A stretch of DNA of 60,898 nt. Source: a virus. Lineage: Duplodnaviria > Caudoviricetes. A program made the translations under genes and the position numbers. This document shows, one piece after another, positions 11,823-60,608 of this stretch. The first letter of the stretch is position 1, and each line of letters opens with the position of its first letter. The notes beneath the pieces are model-generated. The model was not told the DNA's origin, searched no databases, and saw nothing but the letters and a program-made list of their open reading frames with translations. The stretch spans positions 1-60,898 of the IMG/VR virus record IMGVR_UViG_3300030328_000942; one strand, given 5' to 3'.

Positions 11823-11838
11823 GTGTCTTTGAAGACAC
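11823..11838 (-). repeat. 16-bp palindrome copy 7 (TTTGAA on +), exactly filling the gap between the two convergent genome arms
   Basis: Lies between the TAA ending at 11822 and the minus-strand stop at 11838. Confidence 0.95.
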
Positions 11839-17800: not shown

Positions 17801-20800
17801 CTTTCGCATCTGCTTTAATCTCTGCCGGAGTAACCGGAGTGCTAAAAGTATATTCATCTCCAAACCCCTCTTCGGTTTCTGCTTCTTCTTTTGTTGCAGC
17901 TCTTTTCCCTTTCTTTGTAGACACCTCTACAGGTGGGGTAACTTCTTCTGTAGTTACTTCTTCTGTAGTAACCTCTTGTGTAGGTGTAACCTCTTCGGTA
18001 GCTACATCTTCTGTCGCTACATCTTCTTGGAATTTCGGAGGTGTTTTATAGTCTTGATACAAATGTTCCGCATTTTTTTCTGCTTGTTTTTTGGTAGGAA
18101 AATATTCAATGATATACGCCTCTTCCAATCCTCTTACGGGACTATCAAAACCGGTATCATCAAAATCCTCCGTGACCTCCATAGTTACACTCCATCTTCC
18201 ATCAGGGTTAACCGCTTCTCCCACTTCATTTATTTTCCCTCTATTTTCAATTGTAAACTTATAAAGAGGTGTTGTCGCTACATATACCCCTGCTCTTTGT
18301 TTCTTCCACTTTAGCTTCTTAGGTTGTTTTTTTATTGCCGCTTCTATCTTCGCTTTTTTCTCAGCCGGAGTAAGCTCGGTAGTAGATTCAACAACAGTTT
18401 CTCCCTCTAACATAGCCTCCATTTCAGCAACTGATTCTGCTTGTGTCTTTGAAGACACCATTTCATCTACACGCAATTGATTTGCACGAGTTTTTACAAC
18501 TCGTTTTTGAAATTCAGAAAGTTTTTGATTGGCTATTTGTTTGTCTGCAATACCTGCAAGTATTCTATCAAGACGGGATTGGTCAATAGTTTTATTATCA
18601 TAAGCTTGAACATCAGCTATAGTGGGTTGCTTAAGAGATTTAGGAACAACAATAGTTTCTGATTCTGTATCTACTGACACCTCCGCAGCTTTACGTTGTT
18701 TGTTTTCTTTGAAGATTCTTGCTGCTTCATTCATATTAGCAAAACTTTCTTCACGCAACTCAACTGCTTCTTCATTGGTTATATCACCATTGTTTAGAGC
18801 TTGTGTAATAGCTTTTGTTTTTTCTCTTCTTTGTTTACCTGTATCTTCATTTACTTCTATGGATGATAAAGGGTTATTCCCCACCACCTGTGGTGTTTCT
18901 ACCTCACTCTCCTGAGTGGTCGTAGATTCTGTGGTTTGTTCTTGAACGCCCCGTAACGATTCTTCCATCGTTTCCATATTTCCGGTTTGTTGATTTTCAT
19001 CCACTGTTCCTGTTTCTTGCTTTGAAATGGCATCTTGTCCAAATTTATCGGTTACTAATTCACTTACTTTTTCATCGTTGTCTATCGTTATGTTTGCTGC
19101 TTTTAATTCTTTAGGGGACATATCCATTATACGGCTCAAAAATTTTGAACGCTTCAGTGATTTCCCGTCTATTGTATATTTTGATTTTGCATCTGTTCTA
19201 ATGTCTACACCGGAAGTTTGATTCTCATTTAGACCTACAATCCCTGCGAGGTTAGTTTGAAATCCTTGTCCAAAAGTATTGCCTTGTTCTATTTGTGTAT
19301 CAGTAGCTGACTCAATATTTGGTCTAACAGTTTTAGTCTCTACCAACTCATTAAGCTCGGCTTTTATTTCTTTTAATTTACCTGAGAAAACTTCCCTTCT
19401 ATTAGATGAAGATTCAAGCTCTTGTTTTGCTGCCATCAACTCCATCGTTCTATTCAATACTTCAGGTGAAGATTTACCTTCTGTGGCGTTTAAAACATTT
19501 TGTGCGTCTTGCCTTAAGCCTAAGTTTACCTGTATTCTTTGGTTAGTTTCTGTGCTTATCTGTCCAAGCTTGTGCATATTGTTTGCCCAACTTGAAACCT
19601 TTGTAGGACTTGGAGCAAAAAATCCTTTAAGCTCATTATTTAAACCTCTTATAGAAGAGATGTCATTAGCTATAGTAGTGTTGTTTTGTGCACGTAAATC
19701 TAAAGCCGTATTTAGAGCCGCAAATGGAGCGTTGTTTCCAAGACCACCCATTGCTTCTGCAAATATCTCCTTCATCTCTATTTTATCTCCGGCTGAAATT
19801 TGTGCTGCTAATTCACCTGTCGCTTCTGCAAAAGGGTCAAACACTACACGTTCTCCTAATTGCACCGCTACTCTTCGTCCAAAAGAAGCAGTCTTTCCTG
19901 CGTTAAATACTCTACCGGCTAAACCTGAAGACAACATATCTACCACCGCAATTGGAATACCTCTTTGTGCTCCTCTCACATTTCCTTTCTTCCACACTAA
20001 AGGGTCGTTTAAAGCGGCAGTCATATCTTCAGGGTCATTTATATTATAACCCTCTTTACGAGCTACATCTAAAATAGCATTCGTGTATTCTAATGCGTAG
20101 GATGTGGCTGCAAATCCTGTCCTTAAACCCCATATAGCTCCGGCTGCTGCACCACCTCCCGTAGTAACTACACCACCGGGTCCTGTAACAAAACCTGTAG
20201 CACCTATACCTGCACCTATACCTGTTCCGGTTGCAGTTGTAGCTGCAATAATTTTAGTACCATACGGCAGCATTTGGTTTATACTATTAGCCGCCATACT
20301 AAACATCAACTCTGCGGGATTATCAGAGAATGCATCCCAAGCCTCACGAAAACCTTTAGCTCTATGCCATCTTCCCATAGCTCTACTTGTTTCTTCTGTA
20401 TTACTTGCATCTAAATAATCTACTATTCTTTGTGCAAGTTCAGCCGTGCTTTCATCGTCATCACCTTCAAGACCTAATGCCATTTTTAATATTTCATTAC
20501 CGGCTTTACCTCTATACCATCCTTCATCTACTTGCTGCATAAAACCTCCCCAATTATCTACAAGCTCTCCTCTTAAATTTTCATCAAACTTTCCGCTTAA
20601 ATAGGTTTGGGCTACTTCATATTCATTAGCAGCCAATGATGATACATCTTTAGTTGCTTTATAAGATGTAAGAATTGCATCTTGCATCTCTTTACCATCA
20701 TCATCTGTGGCGTTGTAATCTTTTAATTCATCTATGGTTAGTCCAAACTCTGCTAAAGATTTAGCCTCTAATTCATTACTAACATATTTTGCAGATGCGT

Positions 20801-27427: not shown

Positions 27428-30400
27428 CTACGGACATCCGCAATTTGATAATGTTACTGTTATGAATGGACTCAAAGATACGAATTGTGACGCACATACA
27501 AAATTCGAACCTCCACCCGCTATAGTAATTACTTGTGCACCGTTACTACAATCTACATAATCTACTGCAGTAGGTCCCGGTGAAGCATTCTCCAATAGAT
27601 AATATTGACAGACTGACGAACACCCTCTTATAAATAACTGTTGTAAAACTGTTTCCGTTGCAGGTCCCGCACTTAATTGTGTCACTTCAAAAGTACAACT
27701 TACATAATTACTTATTTCTACATAATCACCTATATTCAACGAATTAGAGAAATCTTGAATTATTTCGGTATTAACAACACCATCTTGTCTACATTGTGTT
27801 ACTTCATAAAATTGTAAATCTCCACCCGAACAACCGCACTCATCTAAATTTATTGTTAAATTACCTGATAAAGAAGTAATATCTTTTAAACAGAGAGTTG
27901 TGTTTCTACCCGGTTGTAGCGTGACACTTTGCGGGTCATCATTACAATCAATGAAGTTAATGGTAGCAGCATTTGCTAAAAAATTATCTATTCGATATTT
28001 ATAACATAAGTCATCGCAATCAGTTACAAGAGGTCTTGCCGCAGATATAACCGCATTTGTAGGGTCGGAGGTTACTCCGAGTATTTCAAACACACAATCT
28101 CCAAATCCTTGCAATTCACAAAAATCTCCTGTCGTTAATCCAAACGCTAATGCTACCGAATATTGTACATTAACTGCATCTTGTCTACATTGTTTTGCAA
28201 TATAGTTTTCGCTAAATGCTCCACATTCACAACACGCTGCAAAAGAAGTATTGGCATCATAACATAACTGAACTTCTTCAGCCGCCCTGTAGTCATATAT
28301 TAAATATAAATATTCGTCAGTAGTGTTTGGCATTACAAAGTTAGCTCTATAAGTATTACCACCACCTAAAATTGGAGTAGCATTATTAGAAGCAGCCAAT
28401 AAGTTTGCAATATTACCCGGAGTATTTACGTATAATGTACTCGTTCTTAAATACCTTAAATTATCTACCGTAGGGTCGAAAATATAATCATCGTTTGGAG
28501 CAATACGATTACTTTGTATTGTGACAGTAGCCCCATTACTTGGAGCAATACTTCCTTGTAGACCGGTCACCACACTGTATTGAGATATTAAAGGATTCGT
28601 AGTTCCTGAAGCTAATTGGACACCTACACTTGTAGTTGGAGATTGAACTACTCCATCATTCCAATCATATTCATTATGAATAAGCTCTCCTGCATTTTGG
28701 TCTCGTGAAACACACACTTGAATTATACTTATAGAATCTGCATTTGGACAAAGAACTGTAACTTCTAACACCACGTCTCCTCCACCTACCATCTCAATAA
28801 ATACACCTAAAGTTTCCGGAGTAACAGAATTTTTGTTAACCGGAAGGGTTCCACTTACTGCGGTATTTCCACTTGAATCTACTACATTATTGTATGCGAC
28901 TTCTACTTTAAAGTCATCACCACTCCCACCTAATACAGTCCAATTTACATCAACTTGTCCTACGGAGCTTCCTACGTCTACACAAAAATTAGAAGGAGCG
29001 ACATCACTAATATTTAAGGTACGTGTAACTCCACACTCAATACAATCCACTACTTGAGGGATATCTATTTCGTTAGAGCTTAATACGTACTCATTCATAT
29101 ATGGGTCATATCCGCCAAGCTTTTGAGTAGTGAAATTATCAATAAATAAATCTCTAAACCAAGAACGCATTCCCGCTTCTGAGATTACCGCAAGTTGTTC
29201 ATTTTGTGCTGAGGTTCCTTTTAGTTGTAATACCGCTCCTCTTTTTGCGTCAGTAAAGAATTTATTACTTCCCCATTTAGCAAAACTTTCGGGATTAAAA
29301 CTAATACCATATTCTTCTATTCGAGCTATCTGTGTACCAAGAACTTCAGGAACAGAGGTTACTGCTCCACCACCTACTGCGTCAGATAGTAAATTTTTCC
29401 CTGATAATATGTAAGAGATTTTATCTTCTTGTAAACAAAGTATATCTGTCTCTCTTCCGTCTAACTTCATTACCAATCCAAACTCTTCTTCTAAAGCTTT
29501 AAAATTTAATAAACCTAAATTAAATTCATTTAGTTTATTTACGTTGGATTCATCATTAAATACACCACTGTAAGTTAAATCCGCAAACCTTAATACTTCT
29601 TTATATTCTTGTGCCGATGTACTTGTAACTTGGTTTCCAAGTGTTAATGATTGTCCGGCAATTTCATCTCGTATTAAATAACTTTCAATTCCATTTCCAA
29701 ATGAATAGCAATTAAAAAATGCAGTATTAATAATACCTGTGTTAGTCCCCCCTGCTCCACCAAATTGGTTCTGTACATTACCTATGTGAGCTCCTTGTGG
29801 AAGCGGATAACTATCAATAGTAGTAAAAGAGGGGTTGTCGGGAGGAGTAGATGGACTAACCACCATTGTTGTACATTCTCCTATTACTATCGTAGTTTCT
29901 CCCGGTGCTACTACTATATTGGCAGGATTGCCATTTACATCAACATAATCAAACTGTATTGGGGTTGATTGAGATGAAGATACGGTTGCTTCAAACTCAC
30001 ACGAATTAGCTTTAGCTAAAGGATAAGAGTCTGAACTTAAATACCATAAATCAGGAACTGCATCTGTAGGTTTAGTTTCCCACGCTATAAAAGAAGTGGC
30101 TCTAATAACTTCTATAAGAACTCGTAATCGAACATTTTTTTTATTACCACTATATCCTTCAGAACTTTTTACTTTTAACCATAATGAACCCGCAGGGGCA
30201 ATCGTGTCATAAAAAGAACACGAAATAGCACAACAATTACAACTTGCTATACTATTCATCGCAGAGTTATATCCAATTCCACTTACTCCTGTTCCGCTAT
30301 CACTCCCTTGTGCAGATAGAGATGAAGCAATTTGTTGACCATCAAACCAATCTTTGAAATTAGGGTAGTCTTGATTAGCGGTAAAATTTTCATCTACTAA

Positions 30401-32824
30401 ATATTTACGTTCAGGAACTCCGGCTTTTCCTTGTCTATAATTATCAATACGTATTCTAATTTTACTTCCTGCCGGTATGTCATAGTTTTCATACAAAGGT
30501 GCGACTGTAGTAGATATATGTACCGGATAGTTTATGGTTCTACACCCACTCCCTTTTGAACTTCTTTCTCCAAAATTTATAACTGAATTTTCCTCAAATG
30601 TTGCTGAAAACTCATTGGGTCTCATTTTCATATAAACCCCTGTTGGAATAGGGATAGCGTCTGATGTGCCGGGAATAATGGGAGGATTGTCCTCGCCTAA
30701 AAAGTTTGCAACTTGAGATTTTTTTTCTAATACCGTAGCAAAAGCACATCTTTCAAGAGGTCCTGTCGAATCAGCTTTTACTTGTAAGATATCACCCTCT
30801 TCTACTTTTTGAGCGTTTTGTCCTTCTAATAAAAAATATGTTGCTGAACTGACAGGGTCAGTAAAGAAGAATGAACTATAAATATTAAAGTAATTTTCTT
30901 TATCTTGTTTAATGCACAACTTATATCGAGTAGCCCAATCAGGAGCAATTTGAGTAGTAGGTATTGTAACTTGAATAGAGTTTTTAGAATCAGACTCTGA
31001 ACAAGGAACGTGTACTGTATTATTTTGACTTACTAAAGCAGTGGAAGCTCTATTAAACTCATCCATATAAATTATACCAACCTCATAACTTCTATTACTT
31101 TTTAAAGACTTAGGGTCTCCAATGGTTTGAAAAGTACACGAAGCACTTGCTACTTGATAATCCTCATAAGCTTCTTGAGTTATCGCAACCCCTGTAGGGT
31201 CATCTACAAAACGCATTCTCAACAAGGTAAATCCTATATTAGGATTACCCGCAGAAGCTATAACTGTCATAGGTTGATTGGCTCCACTAACTCCACTTTC
31301 ATATTTTGTTAAAGCCCCTAACGTATTTGGAATTACGCAATTAAATTTATCAGTAGTTGTAACACCATCACACGCATCAGGTACCAATTGAATATTAGCT
31401 ATCGTCCCCATTTGGTCTAAAAACTCTTGGCTTGAAGCCATATCAAATGCAGAACCATAATCACGAGGACAGATAAAAGTAAAATTTATTGCAACTAATG
31501 GAGTGTCAGCAGCCGGAGGATTAGGACCCGTCCATCCTTGATGCTCAAAATTAATTTCAAAATCAAATATAGAACCCGCTTGTATATCTAATGAATCTAT
31601 GTCAAGAAATATAATCGCTCCATTTTGTACGGTAGAAGAAGTAGGTCCAAAAGTATAGGATGTGGTAGCCGTTTGTTCTTCTACGTCTTCTACACCTATA
31701 TCTTCTGATATTAAATCAGTGGTGTAATTTAATTGGACGGGAGCACCCGCAGCCGTAAGTAAATCATATTGTTCTAAATAGTTTCCATAAATTAATCGGT
31801 TCCCCATTAAAGTTTGAGCTTGAGCTAATCGAGGAACATTGTCATATAGTCTTAGTATTTCGCTACTTGGTAATACCGTAAATATTTTGCTATCTGAAAA
31901 CTCATAAGTGTATTCAGTATTATCAGTTATGTTTAATAAGCTTTTATCTAATTTTTCTATTACTCGAATACTTCCATTATTCATATCCTTCCATAGTAAT
32001 TCTATAGCTACTACTAATGGACCTCCTGAGTCATATCTAATGTTAGCTACATTAATAGCGTTTAACATTCCTTCATTTAACCCTACGCCAAAGTCATATG
32101 AAAAAGGTGAAGGAATAAATGCAGGTTCTGAAAACTGTGAAGTGGCTGAAAACTCTCCGTCAGCATATTGATATCTATAAGCAAAACAAACAAACCTATC
32201 TTCTAAAAAATTATTTTGAGAAGCGGCTGAAATAAACTGTAACGATGGAGAAGTTCTCGGTGGCTTTTTAATTACAAGTAAAGACTCGGCATCAAACCCA
32301 TCTATGTTTGCAACAGGATTAGGATAGTTTCTTTGTACATTTATAAAACGTGGAGGATTAATGTTGTCAGTAAAAAACAAAAGCTTTGAATCAACAAGGC
32401 TTATTCCTGTGATTAAGTATGAAGGGTTAAAATTTAACTTAGTTCCACTCCCTGTATCATCACTAATACTAATTACGTGATAAGTAATTACTTGAGTTTG
32501 GACGTTATAAGAAACAATTAAATCAATTGTGTTAGTAGGACTTGAGGGGTAATCGCCATCGTGTATAAACCAATATATAGTTTCATTACCTCCATCTTCA
32601 AAAGCACCAATACATCGAGCTGAACTTGATAAAGCAATACCGTCATATTCTAATGTGGTTAAAGCCACATTTCCTTTAGTGTTCTCTACTGAACCTACTT
32701 CAGTTTCTTCAGTAGAACCTAAACGCACATTTAACGCATCAACATATTGTCCATTAGGTAAAAGCCTTTCATCAAGACTTTTATTCATTATACCCGCTAT
32801 AAAATTTCTTTGCAAATTTGCCAT
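27428..32824 (-). CDS. Large tail (nozzle/stabilisation-type) protein with C-terminal Cys-rich repeats
   Basis: MNKSLDERLLPNGQYVDALNV N-terminus, LFFTDNINPPRFIN, FAYRYQYADGE motifs typical of Bacteroidota podovirus tail proteins. Confidence 0.7.
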   Translation of the reverse strand: MANLQRNFIAGIMNKSLDERLLPNGQYVDALNVRLGSTEETEVGSVENTKGNVALTTLEYDGIALSSSARCIGAFEDGGNETIYWFIHDGDYPSSPTNTIDLIVSYNVQTQVITYHVISISDDTGSGTKLNFNPSYLITGISLVDSKLLFFTDNINPPRFINVQRNYPNPVANIDGFDAESLLVIKKPPRTSPSLQFISAASQNNFLEDRFVCFAYRYQYADGEFSATSQFSEPAFIPSPFSYDFGVGLNEGMLNAINVANIRYDSGGPLVVAIELLWKDMNNGSIRVIEKLDKSLLNITDNTEYTYEFSDSKIFTVLPSSEILRLYDNVPRLAQAQTLMGNRLIYGNYLEQYDLLTAAGAPVQLNYTTDLISEDIGVEDVEEQTATTSYTFGPTSSTVQNGAIIFLDIDSLDIQAGSIFDFEINFEHQGWTGPNPPAADTPLVAINFTFICPRDYGSAFDMASSQEFLDQMGTIANIQLVPDACDGVTTTDKFNCVIPNTLGALTKYESGVSGANQPMTVIASAGNPNIGFTLLRMRFVDDPTGVAITQEAYEDYQVASASCTFQTIGDPKSLKSNRSYEVGIIYMDEFNRASTALVSQNNTVHVPCSESDSKNSIQVTIPTTQIAPDWATRYKLCIKQDKENYFNIYSSFFFTDPVSSATYFLLEGQNAQKVEEGDILQVKADSTGPLERCAFATVLEKKSQVANFLGEDNPPIIPGTSDAIPIPTGVYMKMRPNEFSATFEENSVINFGERSSKGSGCRTINYPVHISTTVAPLYENYDIPAGSKIRIRIDNYRQGKAGVPERKYLVDENFTANQDYPNFKDWFDGQQIASSLSAQGSDSGTGVSGIGYNSAMNSIASCNCCAISCSFYDTIAPAGSLWLKVKSSEGYSGNKKNVRLRVLIEVIRATSFIAWETKPTDAVPDLWYLSSDSYPLAKANSCEFEATVSSSQSTPIQFDYVDVNGNPANIVVAPGETTIVIGECTTMVVSPSTPPDNPSFTTIDSYPLPQGAHIGNVQNQFGGAGGTNTGIINTAFFNCYSFGNGIESYLIRDEIAGQSLTLGNQVTSTSAQEYKEVLRFADLTYSGVFNDESNVNKLNEFNLGLLNFKALEEEFGLVMKLDGRETDILCLQEDKISYILSGKNLLSDAVGGGAVTSVPEVLGTQIARIEEYGISFNPESFAKWGSNKFFTDAKRGAVLQLKGTSAQNEQLAVISEAGMRSWFRDLFIDNFTTQKLGGYDPYMNEYVLSSNEIDIPQVVDCIECGVTRTLNISDVAPSNFCVDVGSSVGQVDVNWTVLGGSGDDFKVEVAYNNVVDSSGNTAVSGTLPVNKNSVTPETLGVFIEMVGGGDVVLEVTVLCPNADSISIIQVCVSRDQNAGELIHNEYDWNDGVVQSPTTSVGVQLASGTTNPLISQYSVVTGLQGSIAPSNGATVTIQSNRIAPNDDYIFDPTVDNLRYLRTSTLYVNTPGNIANLLAASNNATPILGGGNTYRANFVMPNTTDEYLYLIYDYRAAEEVQLCYDANTSFAACCECGAFSENYIAKQCRQDAVNVQYSVALAFGLTTGDFCELQGFGDCVFEILGVTSDPTNAVISAARPLVTDCDDLCYKYRIDNFLANAATINFIDCNDDPQSVTLQPGRNTTLCLKDITSLSGNLTINLDECGCSGGDLQFYEVTQCRQDGVVNTEIIQDFSNSLNIGDYVEISNYVSCTFEVTQLSAGPATETVLQQLFIRGCSSVCQYYLLENASPGPTAVDYVDCSNGAQVITIAGGGSNFVCASQFVSLSPFITVTLSNCGCP

Positions 32825-52795: not shown

Positions 52796-54400
52796 TTATT
52801 TGGTGTCATAACTACGTGCCATTGTTACAATTGCATTGGTAGATAAAATAGTAACCGCTACCGATACTGCATTCTGTAAAGCTTGTCTTGTAACCTTAAC
52901 AGGGTCAATCACCCCAAGAGTCATTAGATAGCCATACTTTTCTTTTTTTACATCATATCCATATAGAGCTCCTTTACAATCATCATAGATTACATCAGCA
53001 TCTAATCCTGCGTTCTCTAAGATTTGATAAAGCGGTGCTTTAAGGGATTCAGCTAAAACTGCGTAAGCAGTTTTTTTTGCGTAATCTTTTTCAGAAGATT
53101 CTTTTATAGAATAACTTTTATGAAAGTTGTATAATGATAATCCACCTCCCGGTAGTATACCTTCTTCAAGTGCAGAGCGTACTGCACATACCGCATCATC
53201 TACACGGTCATATAATTCTTTCTGCTCAAGGTCAGTGTTACCTCCCACATATACCACTCCTATCCCACCGGATAGCGAAGCAATACGTTGGTTAATAAAC
53301 TCACGGTTTGTTTTATCTTTTTCATTTTTGTGAGCCTCCTGAAGTTGAGCTATTCTTTCAGTTACTTCTTCTGTCGTCTCTTCATCATCCTTGACGATGA
53401 CCGTTGAGTCCCGGCTAACTATCACCTTAGCACAGTGACCCAAATCGTTGAAATTAATCAAACTCAAGTCATCGCCTGTCTTTTCACTAAAATACTTAGC
53501 ACCTACACTTATCGCAATATCTTGCATAAGCTCGTGTTGCCTGTATCCAAAGTCAGGAGGGTTTATCGTACAAACCTTTAATCCATTCTTAATTACATTA
53601 GCCGCTAAAGTATTTACTACATTAGTTGAGCAATGACCAATCAATAAAAGTTTTTTACCTTCATTGATAATTGGTTTAAGAACATTTTCAATTTGTAATA
53701 TGTTATTTATCTCAGTGTCGCATACTAATACATAAGTGTCTTCAAAGACACACTCGTCTCTCTTTTGGTCATTGATAAATAAGTTAGATGCATATCCTCT
53801 TTTTACCTTAATCCCTTTTGTGGTTTCATAATAGGTTGAGGAGGTTTTACTTTTCTCTACTGTTACTACACCATCTTTACCTACACTCTCATACACATCA
53901 GCTATGATATCACCCACTTGCTTATCATTGTTCGCTGAGATAATAGCTACGTCACGTAATCTTTTTGGGTCAAGTGTTTTACCTTTTACCTTTAGCGACT
54001 TCGATATCTGTTTGGTTTCTTCTACGATGTGTCTTAATACTTCGGTTCGATTGTCGTTATCAATTAATTCGGTTCCTGCATTTACTAATGCCTCTGCTAA
54101 TACAATAGCAGTTGTGGTTCCATCACCGGCTGAGGATGCAGTTCTATCGGCTGCCTCTTTCATCATCCTAACCGCAAGGTTCTCTACCGGGTCTAATAAT
54201 GAAATAGACTTCGCTACAGTCACACCGTCTTTTGTTACAGTGATTCCGTGTAAGTGTTCGGGTGATTCTATTAATACAGTATTACCTCTTGGACCTAATG
54301 TTGACTTAACTGCATTAGCTATTTTATTTATACCGCTTATAAGTTTGGTTCTACCTTCATCAGAAAAATGAAGTTCTTTGGGAGTGAATCCTTGTTGCAT
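52796..54400 (-). CDS. groEL: Chaperonin GroEL-like
   Basis: STLGPRG, TKDGVTVAK, AGDGTTTA, EGILPGGG, GVIDPVKVTR. Confidence 0.97.
   Translation of the reverse strand: MQQGFTPKELHFSDEGRTKLISGINKIANAVKSTLGPRGNTVLIESPEHLHGITVTKDGVTVAKSISLLDPVENLAVRMMKEAADRTASSAGDGTTTAIVLAEALVNAGTELIDNDNRTEVLRHIVEETKQISKSLKVKGKTLDPKRLRDVAIISANNDKQVGDIIADVYESVGKDGVVTVEKSKTSSTYYETTKGIKVKRGYASNLFINDQKRDECVFEDTYVLVCDTEINNILQIENVLKPIINEGKKLLLIGHCSTNVVNTLAANVIKNGLKVCTINPPDFGYRQHELMQDIAISVGAKYFSEKTGDDLSLINFNDLGHCAKVIVSRDSTVIVKDDEETTEEVTERIAQLQEAHKNEKDKTNREFINQRIASLSGGIGVVYVGGNTDLEQKELYDRVDDAVCAVRSALEEGILPGGGLSLYNFHKSYSIKESSEKDYAKKTAYAVLAESLKAPLYQILENAGLDADVIYDDCKGALYGYDVKKEKYGYLMTLGVIDPVKVTRQALQNAVSVAVTILSTNAIVTMARSYDTK
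53736..53751 (+). repeat. 16-bp palindrome copy 12, inside groEL (CVFEDT)
   Basis: Read directly; the only asymmetric copy oriented against local transcription. Confidence 0.95.
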
Positions 54401-54931: not shown

Positions 54932-54950
54932 ATCTGTAGTTTTCTTTATA

Positions 54951-54958
54951 CAAAGATA
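54951..54958 (-). promoter_or_regulatory. Late promoter -7 box TATCTTTG
   Basis: Recurrent motif. Confidence 0.55.
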
Positions 54959-55121
54959 ATAAAATTTTATTAGATATGTGGAGTCTTTGGGTTCCCCTTG
55001 AAAAATTAAAAAGCCCCCCCCTACCGAAAGTCAAAAAAAAAACTGATGGGGGGTAGTGTTTTCGGTGGTGAGGTTCCAAATTTTTTCGCTTTTTTCCTGT
55101 TACCTGTTGCCCTCCTGTAGT

Positions 55122-55157
55122 CCTCCGCTCCTCCGCTCCGCTCCTCCGCTCTGCTCT
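55122..55157 (+). repeat. (CCT)CCGCT pyrimidine-rich micro-repeat in the divergent non-coding region
   Basis: cctccgctcctccgctccgctcctccgctctgctct. Confidence 0.7.
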
Positions 55158-55228
55158 CGTTCTACCTCTGCTCTTGCTATGCATTCCCTCTGTTGATGAG
55201 GTACATCCATAGATAGAAAGTAAATAGA

Positions 55229-55244
55229 GTGTCTTTAACGACAC
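55229..55244. repeat. 16-bp palindrome copy 13 (variant GTGTCTTTAACGACAC)
   Basis: One mismatch to consensus. Confidence 0.8.
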
Positions 55245-55406
55245 TAAATGAGTAATCTACTGATAGACATACAGAGATTCCTCTTAACCTCTGCTTGACA
55301 TTTATTTGCCCATTACAAACCATAGTGAACAGAGTGTTTGTAATCTATTGAAACACAAAGAGAACAAAAGAATTAGACTAAGGATGAAAGAAAATTGAAA
55401 TTTATA

Positions 55407-55437
55407 GTTGATAATCCAAAATAATGTTGTATTATTG
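55407..55437 (+). promoter_or_regulatory. Probable first early promoter (GTTG-19 nt-TATTATTG)
   Basis: Near-consensus, upstream of the first rightward gene. Confidence 0.45.
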
Positions 55438-55498
55438 AACTATGGATGAACGAGGAATAAACCTTTAGTAAACATAAACACTTAAAAATCAAACAATT

Positions 55499-56146
55499 AT
55501 GAGAAATTTAATGCAAATCGAGGCAGACTTTTTAGCATCTGCACAAGTTCGTAGCCAAGTTAACTTTGCTACAATCGAGAATCTAATCACTGAGGTAGCT
55601 GATGCGAAGAAATCGAAGTTCGACAAATCACTGAAGTTAGCGAAGTTAGTACACGAATCTGTAGTATGGTTTAACGAAGATAGAACTAAGACTCAGTTAG
55701 AGGAGGAAGGAATCGAATGGAGCAATGTAGAAGTATTTTTTAACAGAGTATTTGGATGGCAAAAGTCGTTTGGCTACAAGATGGCTAAGGCAGGTAAATT
55801 ACAATTTACTGAGCCATCTGTGGTTACGAAGTTCAAGAGAAAATGTACTACTGCAGAGAACAATGGCGAGGATGTAAGAAGAAGTATTGAAGCTTTATTG
55901 AAGTTCGCTAAAAATGAGGAGAATGGTACAGAGGGAGAGAATGAGGTTAGCAGAGGGAAAGCATTGGCAACATTCAGTATCGCTAAAGATGGATTGAATG
56001 GTGACAAAGGAGTTTCTGCAAGACTTACGAGAGATGGTCAAGTATCTATTAGTGGTGAATTTGAAAATGAGGATGTTTCAAGAAGAGTAGCGGGTTTATT
56101 CGCTGAGTTGAAATTGGAGTTAGAGAGATACAATCTCAATCAGTAA
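55499..56146 (+). CDS. Hypothetical early protein
   Basis: ORF track; first gene of rightward arm. Confidence 0.8.
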   Translation: MRNLMQIEADFLASAQVRSQVNFATIENLITEVADAKKSKFDKSLKLAKLVHESVVWFNEDRTKTQLEEEGIEWSNVEVFFNRVFGWQKSFGYKMAKAGKLQFTEPSVVTKFKRKCTTAENNGEDVRRSIEALLKFAKNEENGTEGENEVSRGKALATFSIAKDGLNGDKGVSARLTRDGQVSISGEFENEDVSRRVAGLFAELKLELERYNLNQ

Positions 56147-56160
56147 TCAAACAAGGGGTA

Positions 56161-56176
56161 GTGTCTTCAAAGACAC
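56161..56176 (+). repeat. 16-bp palindrome copy 14; extended hairpin 56154-56182 abuts hammerhead 1
   Basis: AGGGGTA-palindrome-TATCCT. Confidence 0.95.
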
Positions 56177-56181
56177 TATCC

Positions 56182-56232
56182 TCTGTCCACAGATGAGTGT
56201 CTGTGCTGATGAGTTCAAAAGAACGAAACAGA
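56182..56232 (+). ncRNA. Hammerhead ribozyme 1 (type III), predicted cleavage GUC^ after 56187
   Basis: UCUG-UC | CACAGA-UGAGUG-UCUGUG | CUGAUGA | GUUC-AAAA-GAAC | GAAA | CAGA: full core and three stems. Confidence 0.92.
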
Positions 56233-56258
56233 AAACCAACAAATAATTAAATTAAATT

Positions 56259-57266
56259 ATGAGAAATTTAAGTCAAAATGGAGTTACTTTCACTACTCAC
56301 GATGAGCCATCGAGAGCGAGAGTTTCTTCTTATGGGAGCAAACCGCTACCATACAAAATTAACAAAGCTGAGTCTGTTGATATCAATGGGCTACCGAGCA
56401 GTGCAAGAAAAAACTTGTACACTGCTGATGGCGGAACAGAGTCATTGTTCACTATCGGTATGGAGTTCGAAAAAGTTCGCTTTCATAGAGGAGCAGTGCA
56501 AGAGTATGCATTGTTCTGCGGATTTGAACACGATGGTAGTTGTGGAGCTGAAGCAGTTACTCACATCTTACCATTGGTAGATAAGTCAATGTGGAGAACG
56601 AAAGTTTTCAATATGTTTGCTGAAGCGAAGAAAATCATTGAGGATGAGTATTCTCCATCTAATGTGAAGTGCGGTGGTCACATTACATTGGGAGTTAAAA
56701 ATGTAAGTGGTAGAGAGTTATCTGATAGACTGAAGAAGTTCAGTGGATTAGTGATGGCTATCTACAGACACAGAGTCTGTAACTACTACTGCAGAGGTAA
56801 CTTTAGAATGGACACATCTGATGAGTATGGTAGTAAGTATACTATTGCTAACTACAAGACTCTTGGTGATGATGGAGTAGTTGAGTTTAGAGTTCCATCG
56901 AGATTCACATCAGTGAAGCAGACAATCCGAAGATATGAGTTCTTTTATCAGATGGTTGACTTTGCGATGAACAAACAAAATTCATCTCTACATCATTTCT
57001 GTAATGCGGTTAGACCAATCCTAATGTCTATGTATGATAACGACACTGAGAAAGTTAACAAGACCATCGAGTTAGCAAAGGAGTTTCAAAAGGTTATCAA
57101 TGGTGGTAAGATTGATGAGAAGACTTGCGGATGGTTTGAGGGATGGTGGAGTTCTAATACTCAGTTAAACTATTTCTTCGGTGGAAGAAGAAGTGACTAC
57201 AAAAGGAATTTCAGTCCATCTGAATACACAGATGTAAGGAAGTTCAAAGAGGAGCAATACTTTTAA
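56259..57266 (+). CDS. Putative amidoligase (COOH-NH2 ligase, glutamine-synthetase-like fold)
   Basis: IGMEFE, HDGSC..EAVT, CGGHITLG, VEFR motifs. Confidence 0.7.
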   Translation: MRNLSQNGVTFTTHDEPSRARVSSYGSKPLPYKINKAESVDINGLPSSARKNLYTADGGTESLFTIGMEFEKVRFHRGAVQEYALFCGFEHDGSCGAEAVTHILPLVDKSMWRTKVFNMFAEAKKIIEDEYSPSNVKCGGHITLGVKNVSGRELSDRLKKFSGLVMAIYRHRVCNYYCRGNFRMDTSDEYGSKYTIANYKTLGDDGVVEFRVPSRFTSVKQTIRRYEFFYQMVDFAMNKQNSSLHHFCNAVRPILMSMYDNDTEKVNKTIELAKEFQKVINGGKIDEKTCGWFEGWWSSNTQLNYFFGGRRSDYKRNFSPSEYTDVRKFKEEQYF

Positions 57267-57273
57267 CCTCAAC

Positions 57274-57301
57274 ACATCCTAAGCAAGATGTAAAACTGCT
57301 T
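57274..57301 (+). ncRNA. H-type pseudoknot immediately 5' of hammerhead 2
   Basis: ACAUC/GAUGU stem; loop AAGCA pairs with downstream UGCUU. Confidence 0.6.
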
Positions 57302-57352
57302 TCTGTATGGTAGTGAGTGCTACCACTGATGATGCCAAAAGGTTGAAACAGA
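57302..57352 (+). ncRNA. Hammerhead ribozyme 2 (type III), predicted cleavage GUA^ after 57307
   Basis: UCUG-UA | UGGUAG-UGAGUG-CUACCA | CUGAUGA | UGCC-AAAA-GGUU | GAAA | CAGA. Confidence 0.85.
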
Positions 57353-57376
57353 TAAATAAATTTAAATTAAATAAAA

Positions 57377-57595
57377 ATGAAAACATTTAACACATTTCAA
57401 AACGCAACGCTTAACCTAATCACATTAATGGTCTATTCAATGGCAGTTAGAGTTCTAATTGACATATGGGTAAACAATGTAAATGATTTTAGGTGGATAG
57501 AACTAACCTATGCAAGTGCATCGAGCATCTTTGTAGCGATACTTGGTTGGTTTCTGCTATTGATAAACATCTCAGTATGGAAAGAAAATAAGTAA
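57377..57595 (+). CDS. Small two-TM membrane protein
   Basis: Two hydrophobic segments; flanked by hammerheads 2 and 3. Confidence 0.7.
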   Translation: MKTFNTFQNATLNLITLMVYSMAVRVLIDIWVNNVNDFRWIELTYASASSIFVAILGWFLLLINISVWKENK

Positions 57596-57659
57596 GGCAT
57601 ACTGATGAGTTCTCAATGAACGAAAGGGTGGTGTCTTCAAAGACACTACTCTCTATGTC
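57596..57659 (+). ncRNA. Hammerhead ribozyme 3 (type I) whose stem III is palindrome copy 15 (57631-57646); cleavage CUC^ after 57653
   Basis: GGCAUA | CUGAUGA | GUUC-UCAAU-GAAC | GAAA | GGGUG-GUGUCUUCAAAGACAC-UACUC | UC | UAUGUC. Confidence 0.88.
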
Positions 57660-57686
57660 AAACATTAAAATAAGAAACGATTAAAT

Positions 57687-58052
57687 ATGAAAACTTTAAC
57701 ACAATTACAAGAAGATTTTAAAGCATTAAACGATAGCTATAAAGCCAATCCATTACCTGCAGGAAAAGAATACAATGCATTTGTTAAGAAATGGAAGAGA
57801 CTTGAAGCTAAAATTAGAAACTACAATAACTCTACTAACATTATGAAAAGAGATGGACTTAAAGTTACTAAGCAATTCGCTGATTATAAAGTTGAATTTA
57901 AAGGAGTTGTTGCTCTAGTTTTTTTAGATGGATGTGTGACAGACTATTGGGCAGTTAATGTAATAGAAGGAAATGTAGAGTTTGAAATTGAAACTTTTGA
58001 AACTAAAGCCGAAGCAATTTGGTACATATATTCAGAATTAAGAAACGATTAA
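57687..58052 (+). CDS. Hypothetical early protein
   Basis: ORF track. Confidence 0.75.
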   Translation: MKTLTQLQEDFKALNDSYKANPLPAGKEYNAFVKKWKRLEAKIRNYNNSTNIMKRDGLKVTKQFADYKVEFKGVVALVFLDGCVTDYWAVNVIEGNVEFEIETFETKAEAIWYIYSELRND

Positions 58053-58075
58053 ATAACAATTAAAATCAAATAACT

Positions 58076-58489
58076 ATGGAAACAATTAAATTTAAAAATG
58101 TAGAGCCAAGTCACGAAGTTGAAAGAGACTTTGACTTGAAGTACGAAAGAATCAAATCTGTTTACAAAGGCAGAATAGATGCTTGTACTTGTGGGTGTGA
58201 GGGAGAGTTCCATTACACTAAACACTTTGCTGAGTACAAATCTAAAGTTGAGGGCAACGACTTACTACTACCATTGGCAGACGATGGTGAAGTTGAGTTT
58301 CTAATCCAAGATGCTTTAGTTTATTCTGACACTGCAAGATTCTTTGTGCAGATGAGTGGTGGATACTGCATCAAAGTTCCTACTCACACTGAGTGGAAAG
58401 ATGCAGAGGGTGGATATGTTCAAATGGGTTACATCATTGACTTACATTGGAAGGACATCAAATTAAATCAAACTAAAATAAATTTATAA
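58076..58489 (+). CDS. Hypothetical protein with CxCGCxG motif
   Basis: SVYKGRIDACTCGCEG. Confidence 0.75.
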   Translation: METIKFKNVEPSHEVERDFDLKYERIKSVYKGRIDACTCGCEGEFHYTKHFAEYKSKVEGNDLLLPLADDGEVEFLIQDALVYSDTARFFVQMSGGYCIKVPTHTEWKDAEGGYVQMGYIIDLHWKDIKLNQTKINL

Positions 58490-58491
58490 TT

Positions 58492-58821
58492 ATGGAAACT
58501 AAATTCGAATGGACTGATGAAGCAGTCAAATCATTTACACAAGTCTACTCTTCAAACTTTAGTAGCAAACTTGTAGACTTTCCTTGTAGCTACAAGGACT
58601 ATAGTGGAAAGAACATCCACGAGAAGATGGAGCAGTTCAAGTTGGACTACAAGCCACAAGAGAAAGTAACATATTGCATCACAATTAAATCTGTGTATGG
58701 TAACTATGGAACAAATGTCAAAGAGTTCAACAACGAAAAGCATTTCGAGAATTGGTATGCAATGATGAGTCGAAAGGGACACAAGATAGTTGGAGTTGAA
58801 TTATTAAAAGGCGAGGAATAA
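58492..58821 (+). CDS. Hypothetical early protein
   Basis: ORF track. Confidence 0.75.
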   Translation: METKFEWTDEAVKSFTQVYSSNFSSKLVDFPCSYKDYSGKNIHEKMEQFKLDYKPQEKVTYCITIKSVYGNYGTNVKEFNNEKHFENWYAMMSRKGHKIVGVELLKGEE

Positions 58822-58982
58822 TGGAAAGACAGAAATACTTTAAGGTCAGATATGCAGGGAAGCTAATTCAAGTTATCCCTGCTCACACGAAATGGGAAGC
58901 AATCGATAGGGTGTACCACGAGAACATCGGAAAGTACAAATGGATTGTCAGAGAAAAATTTACTGCCGTAATCAGTAGATAG
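58821..58982 (+). CDS. 53-aa hypothetical protein
   Basis: MERQKYFKVRY...AHTKWEAIDR...*; TAATG coupling. Confidence 0.6.
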   Translation: MERQKYFKVRYAGKLIQVIPAHTKWEAIDRVYHENIGKYKWIVREKFTAVISR

Positions 58983-58994
58983 ATAAAAAAAAGA

Positions 58995-59026
58995 TTTGGT
59001 AGTGTCGATTTATTGTCGTATCTTTG
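58995..59026 (+). promoter_or_regulatory. Bacteroidota sigma-A-type promoter (TTTG-20 nt-TATCTTTG)
   Basis: Perfect consensus match. Confidence 0.8.
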
Positions 59027-59054
59027 TCTAAATCAAACATTAATCAGTAGTTCT

Positions 59055-59070
59055 GTGTCTTCAAAGACAC
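59055..59070 (+). repeat. 16-bp palindrome copy 16, in the 5' leader of the GATase-GGCT gene
   Basis: Read directly; ~30 nt downstream of the -7 box. Confidence 0.95.
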
Positions 59071-59091
59071 TGCTACACAAACAGAAACACT

Positions 59092-60165
59092 ATGTGTATT
59101 ATTATTGTAAAACAAAAAGGTCAAGATGTACCAAGAGAAATTCTCAAAACATCTGCCCGTATTAATCCTCACGGATTAGGAATCGTATGGCTCGATACAT
59201 ACGAAGTAACTTATCACAAATCAAAGGAGTATAATTTACTTGACAACAACAGACCATACATCGCACACTTTAGATATGCGACCATTGGTAAAATCTGTAA
59301 AGAAAATACTCATCCGTTTGTATGCGGGAATAATAAAGATGAGTTACTAATGATGAACGGAACTGCTCACGGATATGGAAGTAAGGCGATGACAGATACA
59401 GAAGACTTAGCAATCAGACTTGGTAAATCATCAAGACAAAGTTGGGCTAAGCAGTTGAAGAAGTTCGATGCGAGATTCGTATCCATCAACACAAGAACGA
59501 GGTCGTTTCAAATCTACAACAAGTTGGCTTGGAAAAAGAGAGATGGTGTATGGTATTCAAAAGGCAATGTGTTGGAAGATAATCTTGTCGCAGTATATGG
59601 CACACTAAAGAAAGGTTATGGAAATTACTATAGCTACCTTACCTCATCCAAGCATCTTGGTAATGGAACAACAAAAGAGAAGTATCCATTGGTGGTCGAT
59701 GGACTACCTTACCTCATCGAAGAAAAAGGAAAAGGGTACAATGTAAAGGTTGATGTGTTTAAGGTCAGCGATGACAAGCTAAAACATTTAGACCAATTGG
59801 AATCTCATCCACGATGGTATGTGAGAAAACAAGTTCCAATCATAGTGAAAGGTAAAGAGTTACTATGTTGGGTGTACTTTAATCCATCTGCTAAATCAAG
59901 ATGGAATGGCTCAAACCATACTGAGTCTTACGAATATCAAAGACCAAATAATTATTTCAGATATGTGGAGGAGCCACAGATAGTTGTGGATGATAGGCAA
60001 ACGAATATGTTTGATGACTTAGGTGAGTGTGATGTAGAATCATCCTCTCCTTACTGCATCGAATGTTTCAATGACTTAGTATACGATGGCTTAGGAAACG
60101 ACTACCAATGTGTAGGGTGTGGTGCGGTATACGAGAAGTCAATGATAGAAAGTACAAATTGTTAA
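59092..60165 (+). CDS. Class II glutamine amidotransferase fused to a gamma-glutamylcyclotransferase (AIG2-like) domain and a C-terminal Zn ribbon
   Basis: N-terminal MC, NPHGLG, HFRYATIG, NTHPF, MNG; VYGTLKKG...LDQLE; CxxC...CxxC. Confidence 0.85.
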   Translation: MCIIIVKQKGQDVPREILKTSARINPHGLGIVWLDTYEVTYHKSKEYNLLDNNRPYIAHFRYATIGKICKENTHPFVCGNNKDELLMMNGTAHGYGSKAMTDTEDLAIRLGKSSRQSWAKQLKKFDARFVSINTRTRSFQIYNKLAWKKRDGVWYSKGNVLEDNLVAVYGTLKKGYGNYYSYLTSSKHLGNGTTKEKYPLVVDGLPYLIEEKGKGYNVKVDVFKVSDDKLKHLDQLESHPRWYVRKQVPIIVKGKELLCWVYFNPSAKSRWNGSNHTESYEYQRPNNYFRYVEEPQIVVDDRQTNMFDDLGECDVESSSPYCIECFNDLVYDGLGNDYQCVGCGAVYEKSMIESTNC

Positions 60166-60181
60166 TTGTTGGTTGGGGGTG

Positions 60182-60197
60182 GTGTCTTTAAAGACAC
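60182..60197. repeat. 16-bp palindrome copy 17; extended hairpin 60175-60204 abuts hammerhead 4
   Basis: GGGGGTG-palindrome-TGCTCCC. Confidence 0.95.
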
Positions 60198-60203
60198 TGC
60201 TCC

Positions 60204-60254
60204 CGTGTTTACGGATGAGTGTCCGTACTGATGATTCCGAAAGGATGAAACACG
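60204..60254 (+). ncRNA. Hammerhead ribozyme 4 (type III), predicted cleavage GUU^ after 60209
   Basis: CGUG-UU | UACGGA-UGAGUG-UCCGUA | CUGAUGA | UUCC-GAAA-GGAU | GAAA | CACG. Confidence 0.85.
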
Positions 60255-60275: not shown

Positions 60276-60608
60276 ATGAAAGACACAATAGAACATCTAA
60301 GTGTAGAGCAAATCGAATCTCTTTACGAGAAAACTTTTGGAAATCCAATAGACCATTATCCAAGTATGGAAGTATCTCAAATGATAGAGGAGATTGTAGA
60401 AGAACACTTATCACTAAAGACTATGAATAAAGACTATGTTATTTACGACCAAGCTAACGACAGAATGTTATGCTTTGGTAACGGGGATGTAATTTTATTT
60501 GCAGACCGCACAGAAGCAGTTGAAGATTTGTATGGCAATGAAGTTGTTGTACAATTCCAAGACTTATCAAAAGAGAATCAATTAATAATTTTAAATCAAA
60601 TCAAATAA
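60276..60608 (+). CDS. Hypothetical early protein
   Basis: ORF track; starts just after hammerhead 4. Confidence 0.75.
   Translation: MKDTIEHLSVEQIESLYEKTFGNPIDHYPSMEVSQMIEEIVEEHLSLKTMNKDYVIYDQANDRMLCFGNGDVILFADRTEAVEDLYGNEVVVQFQDLSKENQLIILNQIK

Follow-up and report, generated by a model that had tools for sequence, protein, structure and literature searches.

Why would a tailed phage set several self-cleaving RNAs between neighbouring genes of the same strand? The function of hammerhead ribozymes in phages has been an open question since they were discovered there. According to two papers, what most genome-encoded ribozymes do is still undeciphered (PMC6765202; PMC13725137). We examined this question in IMG/VR virus record IMGVR_UViG_3300030328_000942 (Duplodnaviria; Caudoviricetes), a complete record of 60,898 bp (CheckV completeness 100%) that was analysed at full length and is called the window below. 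A sequence-only reading had noticed four hammerheads ahead of start codons in its rightward gene block and had proposed that the phage cuts an early polycistronic RNA into gene-sized units. Our own reading, which we hold to be probable with some reservation, is that cis-acting hammerheads split a multi-gene RNA of this ~61 kb uncultured marine tailed phage and that the upstream RNAs end in a protective hairpin. The four elements are a well-supported new example of the phage hammerhead clusters described since 2011, and the predicted hairpin-anchored cut reported here gives a testable handle on the old question of what phage hammerheads do.

A structure descriptor written for the purpose was run over both strands of the whole record, and the sequence was also read directly. 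The two agree on exactly four hammerheads in 60.9 kb, all on the plus (sense) strand, all intergenic and all within 4.1 kb, at the coordinates first reported. One hundred first-order Markov sequences of window length, searched on both strands, gave a mean of 0.03 descriptor matches and a maximum of 1. CUGAUGA, GAAA, the A15.1-U16.1 pair, a U-H cleavage dinucleotide and three paired stems are present in 4/4 elements, so the claim of a full core with three stems stands. Hammerheads 1 (56182..56232), 2 (57302..57352) and 4 (60204..60254) are type III and 51 nucleotides (nt) long, with a 6-bp stem I and a 4-bp stem II. They run from the 5' strand of stem III through the U-H site, stem I (UGAGUG loop), CUGAUGA, stem II (AAAA or GAAA loop) and GAAA to the 3' strand of stem III. 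Hammerhead 3 (57596..57659) is type I: it is 64 nt long, with GGCAUA/UAUGUC as an open stem I and a hairpin of 11-12 bp (57625-57652) as stem III. The minimum free energy (MFE) fold is the hammerhead fold for elements 3 and 4.

Cleavage is predicted at 56187/56188 (GUC/C), 57307/57308 (GUA/U), 57653/57654 (CUC/U) and 60209/60210 (GUU/U), the same positions as proposed before, and would leave fragments of 1120, 346 and 2556 nt between successive cuts. The stem I pairings already listed (CACAGA/UCUGUG, UGGUAG/CUACCA and UACGGA/UCCGUA) are correct, and the distances from element end to next ATG (26, 24, 27 and 21 nt for elements 1-4) agree with the 21-27 nt given then. Stem II is closed by G10.1-C11.1 in elements 1 and 3, whereas a U10.1-U11.1 mismatch takes that place in elements 2 and 4; element 2 also has a G-U pair in stem II. 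The sequence-only reading was thus right about the four hammerheads and missed the type I topology of element 3, the U-U variant and the tie to a repeated hairpin described below.

The window elements share the core, three-way junction and cleavage site of Rfam Hammerhead_3 (RF00008) and Hammerhead_1 (RF00163). In an Rfam search, which had been suggested as a check, there were 0 matches in the window at the gathering score. In E-value mode Hammerhead_3 matched elements 1 (42.4 bits, E 6.1e-07) and 4 (35.1 bits, E 7.1e-05) below the gathering score of 48.5, and neither element 2 nor element 3 had an Rfam match at E<=10. All four would thus go unnoticed in standard annotation. Models built from relatives only separated the elements cleanly from the rest of the record: the type III model (R3) scored 76.2 bits for element 1, 68.9 for element 4 and 67.9 (E 7.9e-21) for element 2, and the type I model (R2), made from 12 relatives with element 3 and its two nearest kin excluded, scored 56.4 bits (E 2.9e-15) for element 3. 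The next-best window matches reached at most 14 bits, and with filters off these models found no additional hammerheads anywhere in the 60.9 kb. A whole abundant hammerhead subfamily is overlooked when annotation relies on the Rfam gathering score.

Relatives provided further evidence that these are hammerheads. We searched IMG/VR with a pattern made up of unpaired conserved positions only (loop I, the core, part of loop II and GAAAC), which imposes no pairing and therefore makes its matches a fair test of pairing. It gave 67 matches in 59 phage stretches, many from contigs of 58-65 kb. Stem I was paired at 6/6 positions in 66/67 matches, made from 38 distinct strands, and the U-H site was present in 67/67. 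Stem II had 4/4 pairs in 54 matches and 3/4 in 13, and stem III had at least 3/4 pairs in 66/67. A control slid by 9 nt mostly gave 1-2 of 6 stem I pairs. The covariation first seen among stems of one genome is thus upheld at large scale, both in this set and in the type III and type I alignments.

Using the descriptor we found 141 hammerheads in related stretches, which with the window's four make 145 copies from 60 sources (112 type III and 33 type I). In many of these stretches there are three to five hammerheads, with types I and III mixed. The type III alignment comprised 93 of 100 distinct sequences (53 nt, gapless), the 7 of other lengths being left out. Its covariation was 0.731 vs 0.224 in shuffles, with 0/500 shuffles as high, and both sides had changed in 13/16 pairs. 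Among the 13 distinct type I sequences covariation was 0.597 vs 0.176 in shuffles (0/500 as high), both sides had changed in 14/22 pairs, and pairing was 100%. Percentages of pairing are inflated in both alignments because the descriptor that selected them demands pairing, a bias that leaves the variety of pair types unaffected.

Core columns of the 93 aligned type III sequences were invariant except N7, and the A15.1-U16.1 pair was invariant in 93/93. Over the 145 copies H17 was most often C (88), less often A (48) and seldom U (9). Several columns of loop I (UGAGUG) and loop II (AAAA or GAAA) were at least 90% conserved in the type III alignment, which is consistent with a tertiary contact between stem I and stem II. 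Where stem II of the descriptor set had an unpaired position, it was 10.1/11.1, unpaired in 32/93 type III sequences. These mismatches were unevenly placed: hammerheads behind homologs of the GGACT-domain gene (the gene ahead of hammerhead 4) had 13 U-U and 4 A-A (17/21), and those behind homologs of the 335-amino-acid (aa) gene ahead of hammerhead 2 had 3/42 (U-U). Such position-specific concentration looks like selective maintenance, not decay. In complete relatives the type III copies lay in one region in 5/5 genomes, and spanned ~4 kb in the two where more than one was present. Loss of cores or pairing in related phages had been named as an observation that would tell against the ribozymes; cores and pairing are kept. 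Comparative sequence analysis thus confirmed the four elements as genuine, conserved hammerheads.

The subfamily has a wider reach. The same compact type III form occurred as 18 copies in 10/11 stretches, often two to four per stretch, on contigs binned with Patescibacteria, Saccharibacteria, Zixiibacteriota and a gammaproteobacterium. Some of these binned contigs (65-73 kb) may be phage genomes that were placed in bins. A blastn search with the upstream hairpin and hammerhead 1 gave no match in 50,697 GenBank phage records. The search for a cultured relative, by tblastn with the 335-aa protein and by blastn with the region, found only MW202828.1 in each case.

Hammerhead copies sit between genes in a regular way. 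Only 3/145 lay inside a same-strand open reading frame (ORF) of at least 100 aa. Over the 145 copies the previous stop was a median of 32 nt away and the next ATG a median of 24 nt, the ATG lying within 40 nt in 100/137. The genes on the two sides behaved very differently. Upstream genes fell into large clusters, of which the largest was that of the 335-aa ORF (56259..57266, plus strand, between hammerheads 1 and 2), with a type III hammerhead after its homologs in 42 sources (41 related stretches and the window). The cluster of the 357-aa GGACT-domain ORF (59092..60165, plus strand) had a hammerhead after it in 21 sources (20 related stretches and the window), and that of the 215-aa ORF (55499..56146, plus strand), which opens the rightward block and has no family match, in 10 (nine related stretches and the window). 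Downstream ORFs formed 61 clusters among 110, with the largest at 11. The hammerheads track upstream genes far more than downstream genes.

The upstream side also carries a structure. The 48 nt ahead of the hammerhead had an MFE of -12 kcal/mol or lower in 100/112 type III copies vs 76/1000 random 48-mers, and the hairpin ended 0-5 nt before U16.1 in 98 of those 100. Hammerhead 1 is preceded by a strong plus-strand hairpin at 56155..56182, with a GUGUCUUCAAAGACAC apex and a variable extended stem, that abuts its stem III (MFE of the upstream 48 nt, -18.0 kcal/mol). Hammerhead 4 is abutted by a strong plus-strand hairpin at 60175..60204 (-21.6 kcal/mol), whose apex GUGUCUUUAAAGACAC, which differs from GUGUCUUCAAAGACAC by one base, is extended by 8 further pairs. 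In element 3 the same repeated hairpin is stem III itself, and this holds for type I copies generally. In both topologies the predicted cut is a few bases 3' of the hairpin. The topologies also replace each other at orthologous junctions: eight hairpin plus type III and two type I elements followed homologs of the 215-aa gene, and two type III and three type I elements followed homologs of the 72-aa gene (57377..57595, plus strand), whose stop codon in the window adjoins stem I of hammerhead 3. Because the types swap at such junctions, the conserved feature is the order of hairpin and then cut, not the topology.

The hairpin apex is a near-palindromic 16-mer, GTGTCTTCAAAGACAC, that occurs at 17 places in the window vs 0.75 expected, starting at 689, 2015, 3901, 4845, 5298, 8016, 11823, 18443, 25400, 36182, 43373, 53736, 55229, 56161, 57631, 59055 and 60182. 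Intergenic copies have 5-8 extra flanking base pairs that differ from copy to copy. The 16-mer forms the apex of 64/112 upstream hairpins in 33/60 sources, and five related phages had 13-21 strand-counts of it each vs 0 for the reversed control. The predicted hairpin-anchored cut and the exchange of types I and III at orthologous junctions are new. Neither the hairpin coupling nor the topology exchange was found in the main-text passages of Perreault et al. (PMC3088659), whose supplementary alignments may already hold subfamily members.

The plus-strand block begins at 55499, immediately after a ~550 bp non-coding divergent region, passes the record end and resumes at position 1 with small ORFs followed by exonuclease, primase/helicase and helicase genes on the same strand. 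All four hammerheads are within its first 5 kb. Calling the block early is reasonable from layout alone, with small ORFs placed after a divergent region and ahead of the primase/helicase. We infer co-transcription, cleavage in vivo, protection by the hairpin and the unusual RNA end, and early timing. The rightward block would be transcribed through its spacers as a multi-gene RNA, and each element would fold during transcription and cut itself at N-U-H, with a strong hairpin left a few bases 5' of the cut. At its 3' end the upstream RNA would then carry the hairpin and a 2',3'-cyclic phosphate. The downstream RNA would have a 5'-OH end, placed 33 nt ahead of the next start codon for type I and 66-71 nt for type III, and an A-rich leader without a Shine-Dalgarno-like motif. 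The 3' hairpin would block 3' exonucleases, and the separate units could differ in stability and translation without a stop in transcription.

The constant geometry of hairpin and cut, together with the tie to the upstream gene, leads us to favour a role in forming or protecting the 3' end of the upstream message. That transcripts are cut at all, as the sequence-only reading held, gains from the conservation of sense-strand intergenic hammerheads; as an idea it is not new, having been put forward in passages of Perreault et al. (PMC3088659). The further claim of gene-sized units throughout does not hold, as five ORFs (57687-60165) lie between cuts 3 and 4. We suggest more tentatively that hairpin and hammerhead together are a self-contained mRNA 3'-end signal that stands in for a terminator and dispenses with termination by the polymerase, in which selection would fix the cut relative to a clade-wide hairpin (apex GUGUCUUCAAAGACAC) recognised by a phage or host protein and the U-U elements would be deliberately slow cutters. 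If true, such a 3'-end signal would explain the interchange of types I and III and the tracking of upstream genes, and the balance between joined and separated messages would depend on the U-U variants at their fixed junctions. The clade is an unusually clean comparative set, with 145 copies from 60 sources, two topologies at orthologous junctions, constant geometry and position-specific U-U. It turns a vague processing idea into specific tests of upstream 3'-end protection, cutting rate and hairpin dependence.

Besides the selection bias of the descriptor alignments, several observations weigh against this account of the locus. Hammerhead 2 departs from the strong-hairpin rule: it is preceded by a weak 5-bp hairpin (ACAUC/GAUGU; 57274..57291, plus strand), its upstream MFE is -3.6 kcal/mol, and a CCUAAGCAAG...AAACUGCU element that resembles this weak hairpin is present in a few relatives. 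A hammerhead is attached to only 3/17 of the hairpin copies in the window. The MFE folds of elements 1 and 2 contain stems I and II and not the short stem III, and in context stem III has to compete for its UGU with the extended upstream hairpin. Elements 2 and 4, without the G10.1-C11.1 pair, may cut more slowly. The association with upstream genes could merely reflect conserved core genes that are followed by variable cassettes. In the one GenBank relative, MW202828.1 (60.85 kb), the 20.9 kb examined showed no hammerhead. A sigma-70-type promoter scan of the window was at chance level, with 18 matches vs 20.2 expected.

The same spacing data could instead be taken to mean that the ribozymes serve the downstream gene, with cleavage freeing or remodelling the leader, separating it from the upstream hairpin and ribosomes, leaving a 5'-OH end and switching on or tuning translation in a host that initiates on unstructured A-rich leaders. 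The tight, conserved distance to the ATG (median 24 nt; 100/137 within 40 nt) and the A-rich leaders without Shine-Dalgarno-like motifs fit this idea. There are precedents too: passages of PMC13725137 report that self-cleavage ahead of ORFs is required for translation in some eukaryotic RNA viruses, and passages of PMC3088659 place the hammerhead of haloviruses HF1/HF2 13 nt ahead of an early helicase gene. The RNA-virus precedent is, however, eukaryotic and cap-related, and in our set the downstream genes are highly variable whereas the upstream ones are conserved. Types I and III are interchangeable at the same junction yet leave very different 5' ends, a bare 33-nt leader in the one case and a whole-ribozyme leader in the other, and a role in the downstream leader is less likely for that reason. 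We consider a primary role in the downstream gene unlikely.

The wide spread of the 16-mer raises a different possibility, namely that the hairpin is the primary signal (a terminator, a pause, a promoter or a protein site for a phage factor) and that the hammerheads insulate units, e.g., by trimming read-through RNA to one 5' end. The apex is conserved across the clade, in upstream hairpins and in the five related phages alike; the 17 window copies are mostly oriented with the genes; T runs follow some of them (5298, 36182); and the cuts fall 7-12 nt past the 16-mer. The hairpin's own function may indeed be something else, because copies occur without hammerheads, such as the plus-strand 16-mer hairpin at 59055..59070 ahead of the GGACT-domain gene, and inside ORFs. 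Against such a signal, six of the 17 16-mers are inside ORFs (read as VSSKT, VSLKT, VFKDT or VFEDT), including a 3511-aa ORF, and one of the six is antisense in GroEL. A T run is missing at most hammerhead-linked copies, and in the window no terminator-like T run follows the hammerhead-linked hairpins. The type I form requires the hairpin and its upstream sequence in one RNA, and no phage RNA polymerase was identified, family searches and a scan for four polymerase motifs having given nothing in the 3511-aa ORF. That the hairpin is the primary signal at this locus seems to us quite improbable.

We put slightly less trust again in an action on DNA, in which modules of hairpin and hammerhead (~90-bp repeats) would promote recombination and cassette shuffling and ribozyme activity would be secondary. 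In T4-type phages repeats of promoter and stem-loop promote the shuffling of gene cassettes. The genes downstream of the modules are very variable, as this idea would have it. Metagenome contigs from related populations, at 85% likeness, lose similarity at the module edges: one joint (57670-58075) deletes the gene at 57687-58052 right behind hammerhead 3, and several contigs match the module only (56179-56234 and 57275-57384) with unlike flanks, all of which is weak evidence. The modules look like conserved islands at mosaic boundaries. A recombination repeat, however, should conserve its sequence, and here there are 38 stem I versions and compensatory changes in 13/16 pairs around an invariant core. 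Stems that vary freely while pairing is kept point to selection on RNA structure.

It is very improbable that ribozyme pairs free gene-length RNAs with 5'-OH and cyclic-phosphate ends, which the ribozyme itself or RtcB would join into circular or spliced RNAs. Hammerheads 1 and 2 have one and the same stem III (UCUG/CAGA), and a hammerhead could thus re-form from the two ends of the 1120-nt fragment; the possibility was raised by Perreault et al. (PMC3088659, in passages that also state that such products were sought and none detected). Stem III was compatible in 17/46 consecutive type III pairs vs 27% of random cross-phage pairs, which is no clear excess, and mixed type I and type III neighbours would be unable to rebuild a ribozyme. 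That the motifs are decayed or chance look-alikes without activity is hardly credible either: all four are below the Rfam gathering score and two have the U-U mismatch beside the core, yet the core is intact in 4/4, compensatory variation is massive over 59 related stretches and 0.03 matches are expected by chance.

Cleavage of a long phage RNA by clustered hammerheads, which is part of the reading we prefer, has precedents. Perreault et al. 2011 described hundreds of bacterial hammerheads, many of them near prophage genes (PMC3088659). According to the passages considered here, the prophage and phage clusters flank single genes or short blocks of varying identity; cleavage was observed in vitro on native transcripts of ~2 kb and in vivo for the Agrobacterium ardA locus; and clustered hammerheads were proposed to cut long phage transcripts into mRNAs of operon or gene length (PMC3088659). 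The same passages list U10.1-U11.1 as a natural variant and state that U-U supports more cleavage than other mismatches (PMC3088659). Because clustered phage hammerheads and the processing idea were described in 2011, the window elements belong to a known kind (PMC3088659). A further likeness is HHphage of haloviruses HF1/HF2, in which a hammerhead sits a few nucleotides before the gene that opens an early polycistronic transcript, with a mapped 5' end near the cut; unlike the window elements it is present only once, has a variant core and belongs to an archaeal virus, and hairpin coupling is not described for it in those passages (PMC3088659). The clusters of Agrobacterium tumefaciens (ardA), Clostridium scindens and Azorhizobium caulinodans likewise have mixed types on one strand, U-U variants and a proposed processing role. 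Those are prophage clusters, whereas the window clade is apparently lytic, uncultured, marine and ~61 kb in size. In this clade the type III form is compact (51-53 nt) and its loops (UGAGUG, AAAA) hardly vary, a repeated hairpin anchors the predicted cut, and one type can take the place of the other where junctions are orthologous.

Processing of T7 early mRNA by RNase III, to which the locus had been likened, is apt as an analogy. Intergenic cuts there yield gene-length mRNAs, and the upstream product keeps a 3' hairpin. RNase III is a host protein enzyme that leaves 5'-phosphate and 3'-OH ends, whereas the proposed cutter here would be the RNA itself, with predicted 5'-OH and 2',3'-cyclic phosphate ends. 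RiboJ-type insulators also place a hammerhead before a coding sequence, where it trims upstream RNA and makes expression independent of context. RiboJ is an engineered part, and the window has a natural arrangement that is repeated along an operon. In the fungal and plant RNA viruses of Lopez-Galiano et al. 2026, hammerheads in untranslated regions or between genes lie near start codons, and cleavage is linked in the passages considered to expression of the downstream ORF (PMC13725137). Theirs are eukaryotic RNA viruses with cap-independent translation, whereas the window is a DNA phage. Searches of the literature from 2015 on self-cleaving hammerheads in phage genomes found nothing on this clade, and those linking hammerhead ribozymes with N4-like phages or with early phage genes found nothing relevant. 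For hammerheads with crAss phages, nothing relevant except the RNA-virus paper was among the matches listed.

Other features of the rightward block and of the genome were as follows. Long runs of C, G and A and CTCCG-type repeats mark the non-coding region between the divergent gene blocks (54950-55498, ~550 bp), which may serve as an origin or control region or be an end of the genome. Between hammerheads 3 and 4, four small plus-strand ORFs (121, 137, 109 and 53 aa; 57687..58982) have no hammerheads between them, and a 110-aa plus-strand ORF (60276..60608) lies 3' of hammerhead 4. The 335-aa and GGACT-domain ORFs are the two best-conserved ribozyme-flanked genes. The 335-aa protein has a weak amidoligase lead (nearest Atlas cluster score 0.97, with Amidoligase_2 on 12% of cluster members), and the 357-aa protein has a weak match to class-II glutamine amidotransferases next to its GGACT domain. 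Pairings of amidoligase-like and amidotransferase/GGACT proteins are predicted to make or attach small peptide-like tags.

A Bacteroidota-type promoter pattern had 7 matches vs 3.1 expected in the window, but neither the four spacers nor the sequence ahead of 55499 held any. With regard to co-transcription across the ribozymes, the lack of promoter matches in the spacers and of terminator-like T runs behind the hairpins counts only as absence of motifs. A weak promoter-like match (TTTG ... TAnnTTTG) at 58995-59026 on the plus strand, ahead of the 59055 hairpin and the GGACT-domain gene, could be an internal promoter of the longest ribozyme-free unit. Over the 65 window ORFs of at least 60 aa with a full leader, a Shine-Dalgarno-like word was present in 2/65 leaders vs ~10% of random 17-mers, and A made up 50% of leader composition. 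A-rich leaders without Shine-Dalgarno motifs are typical of Bacteroidota. The leaders therefore suggest that the host is a marine member of the Bacteroidota, or a similar bacterium that does without Shine-Dalgarno pairing.

Minus-strand genes occupy ~43 kb and include the portal, the large terminase, virion proteins, GroEL, a 1798-aa protein and the 3511-aa ORF. The latter (11838-22373, minus strand) had as its sole lead an Atlas score of 0.88 to clusters carrying LPD39, a large polyvalent protein domain. Its sequence gave no match in Pfam, PHROG, NCBIfam or PDB searches, and a scan of this ORF for four polymerase motifs (DxDxD and T7-like motif B types) found none. These searches gave no support for reading it as an N4-like or crAss-like virion RNA polymerase, or for the label N4-like. 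The N-terminus of the 1798-aa ORF (27428-32824, minus strand) matched the crAss-virus muzzle family PF25731 (E 3.9e-10), which hints at a tail apparatus related to that of crass-like phages in a 61 kb genome. A full-length GroEL homolog was present at 52796-54400 on the minus strand (PHROG E 1.3e-135), and the annotation of the GenBank relative MW202828.1 includes groEL and a 10 kDa chaperonin.

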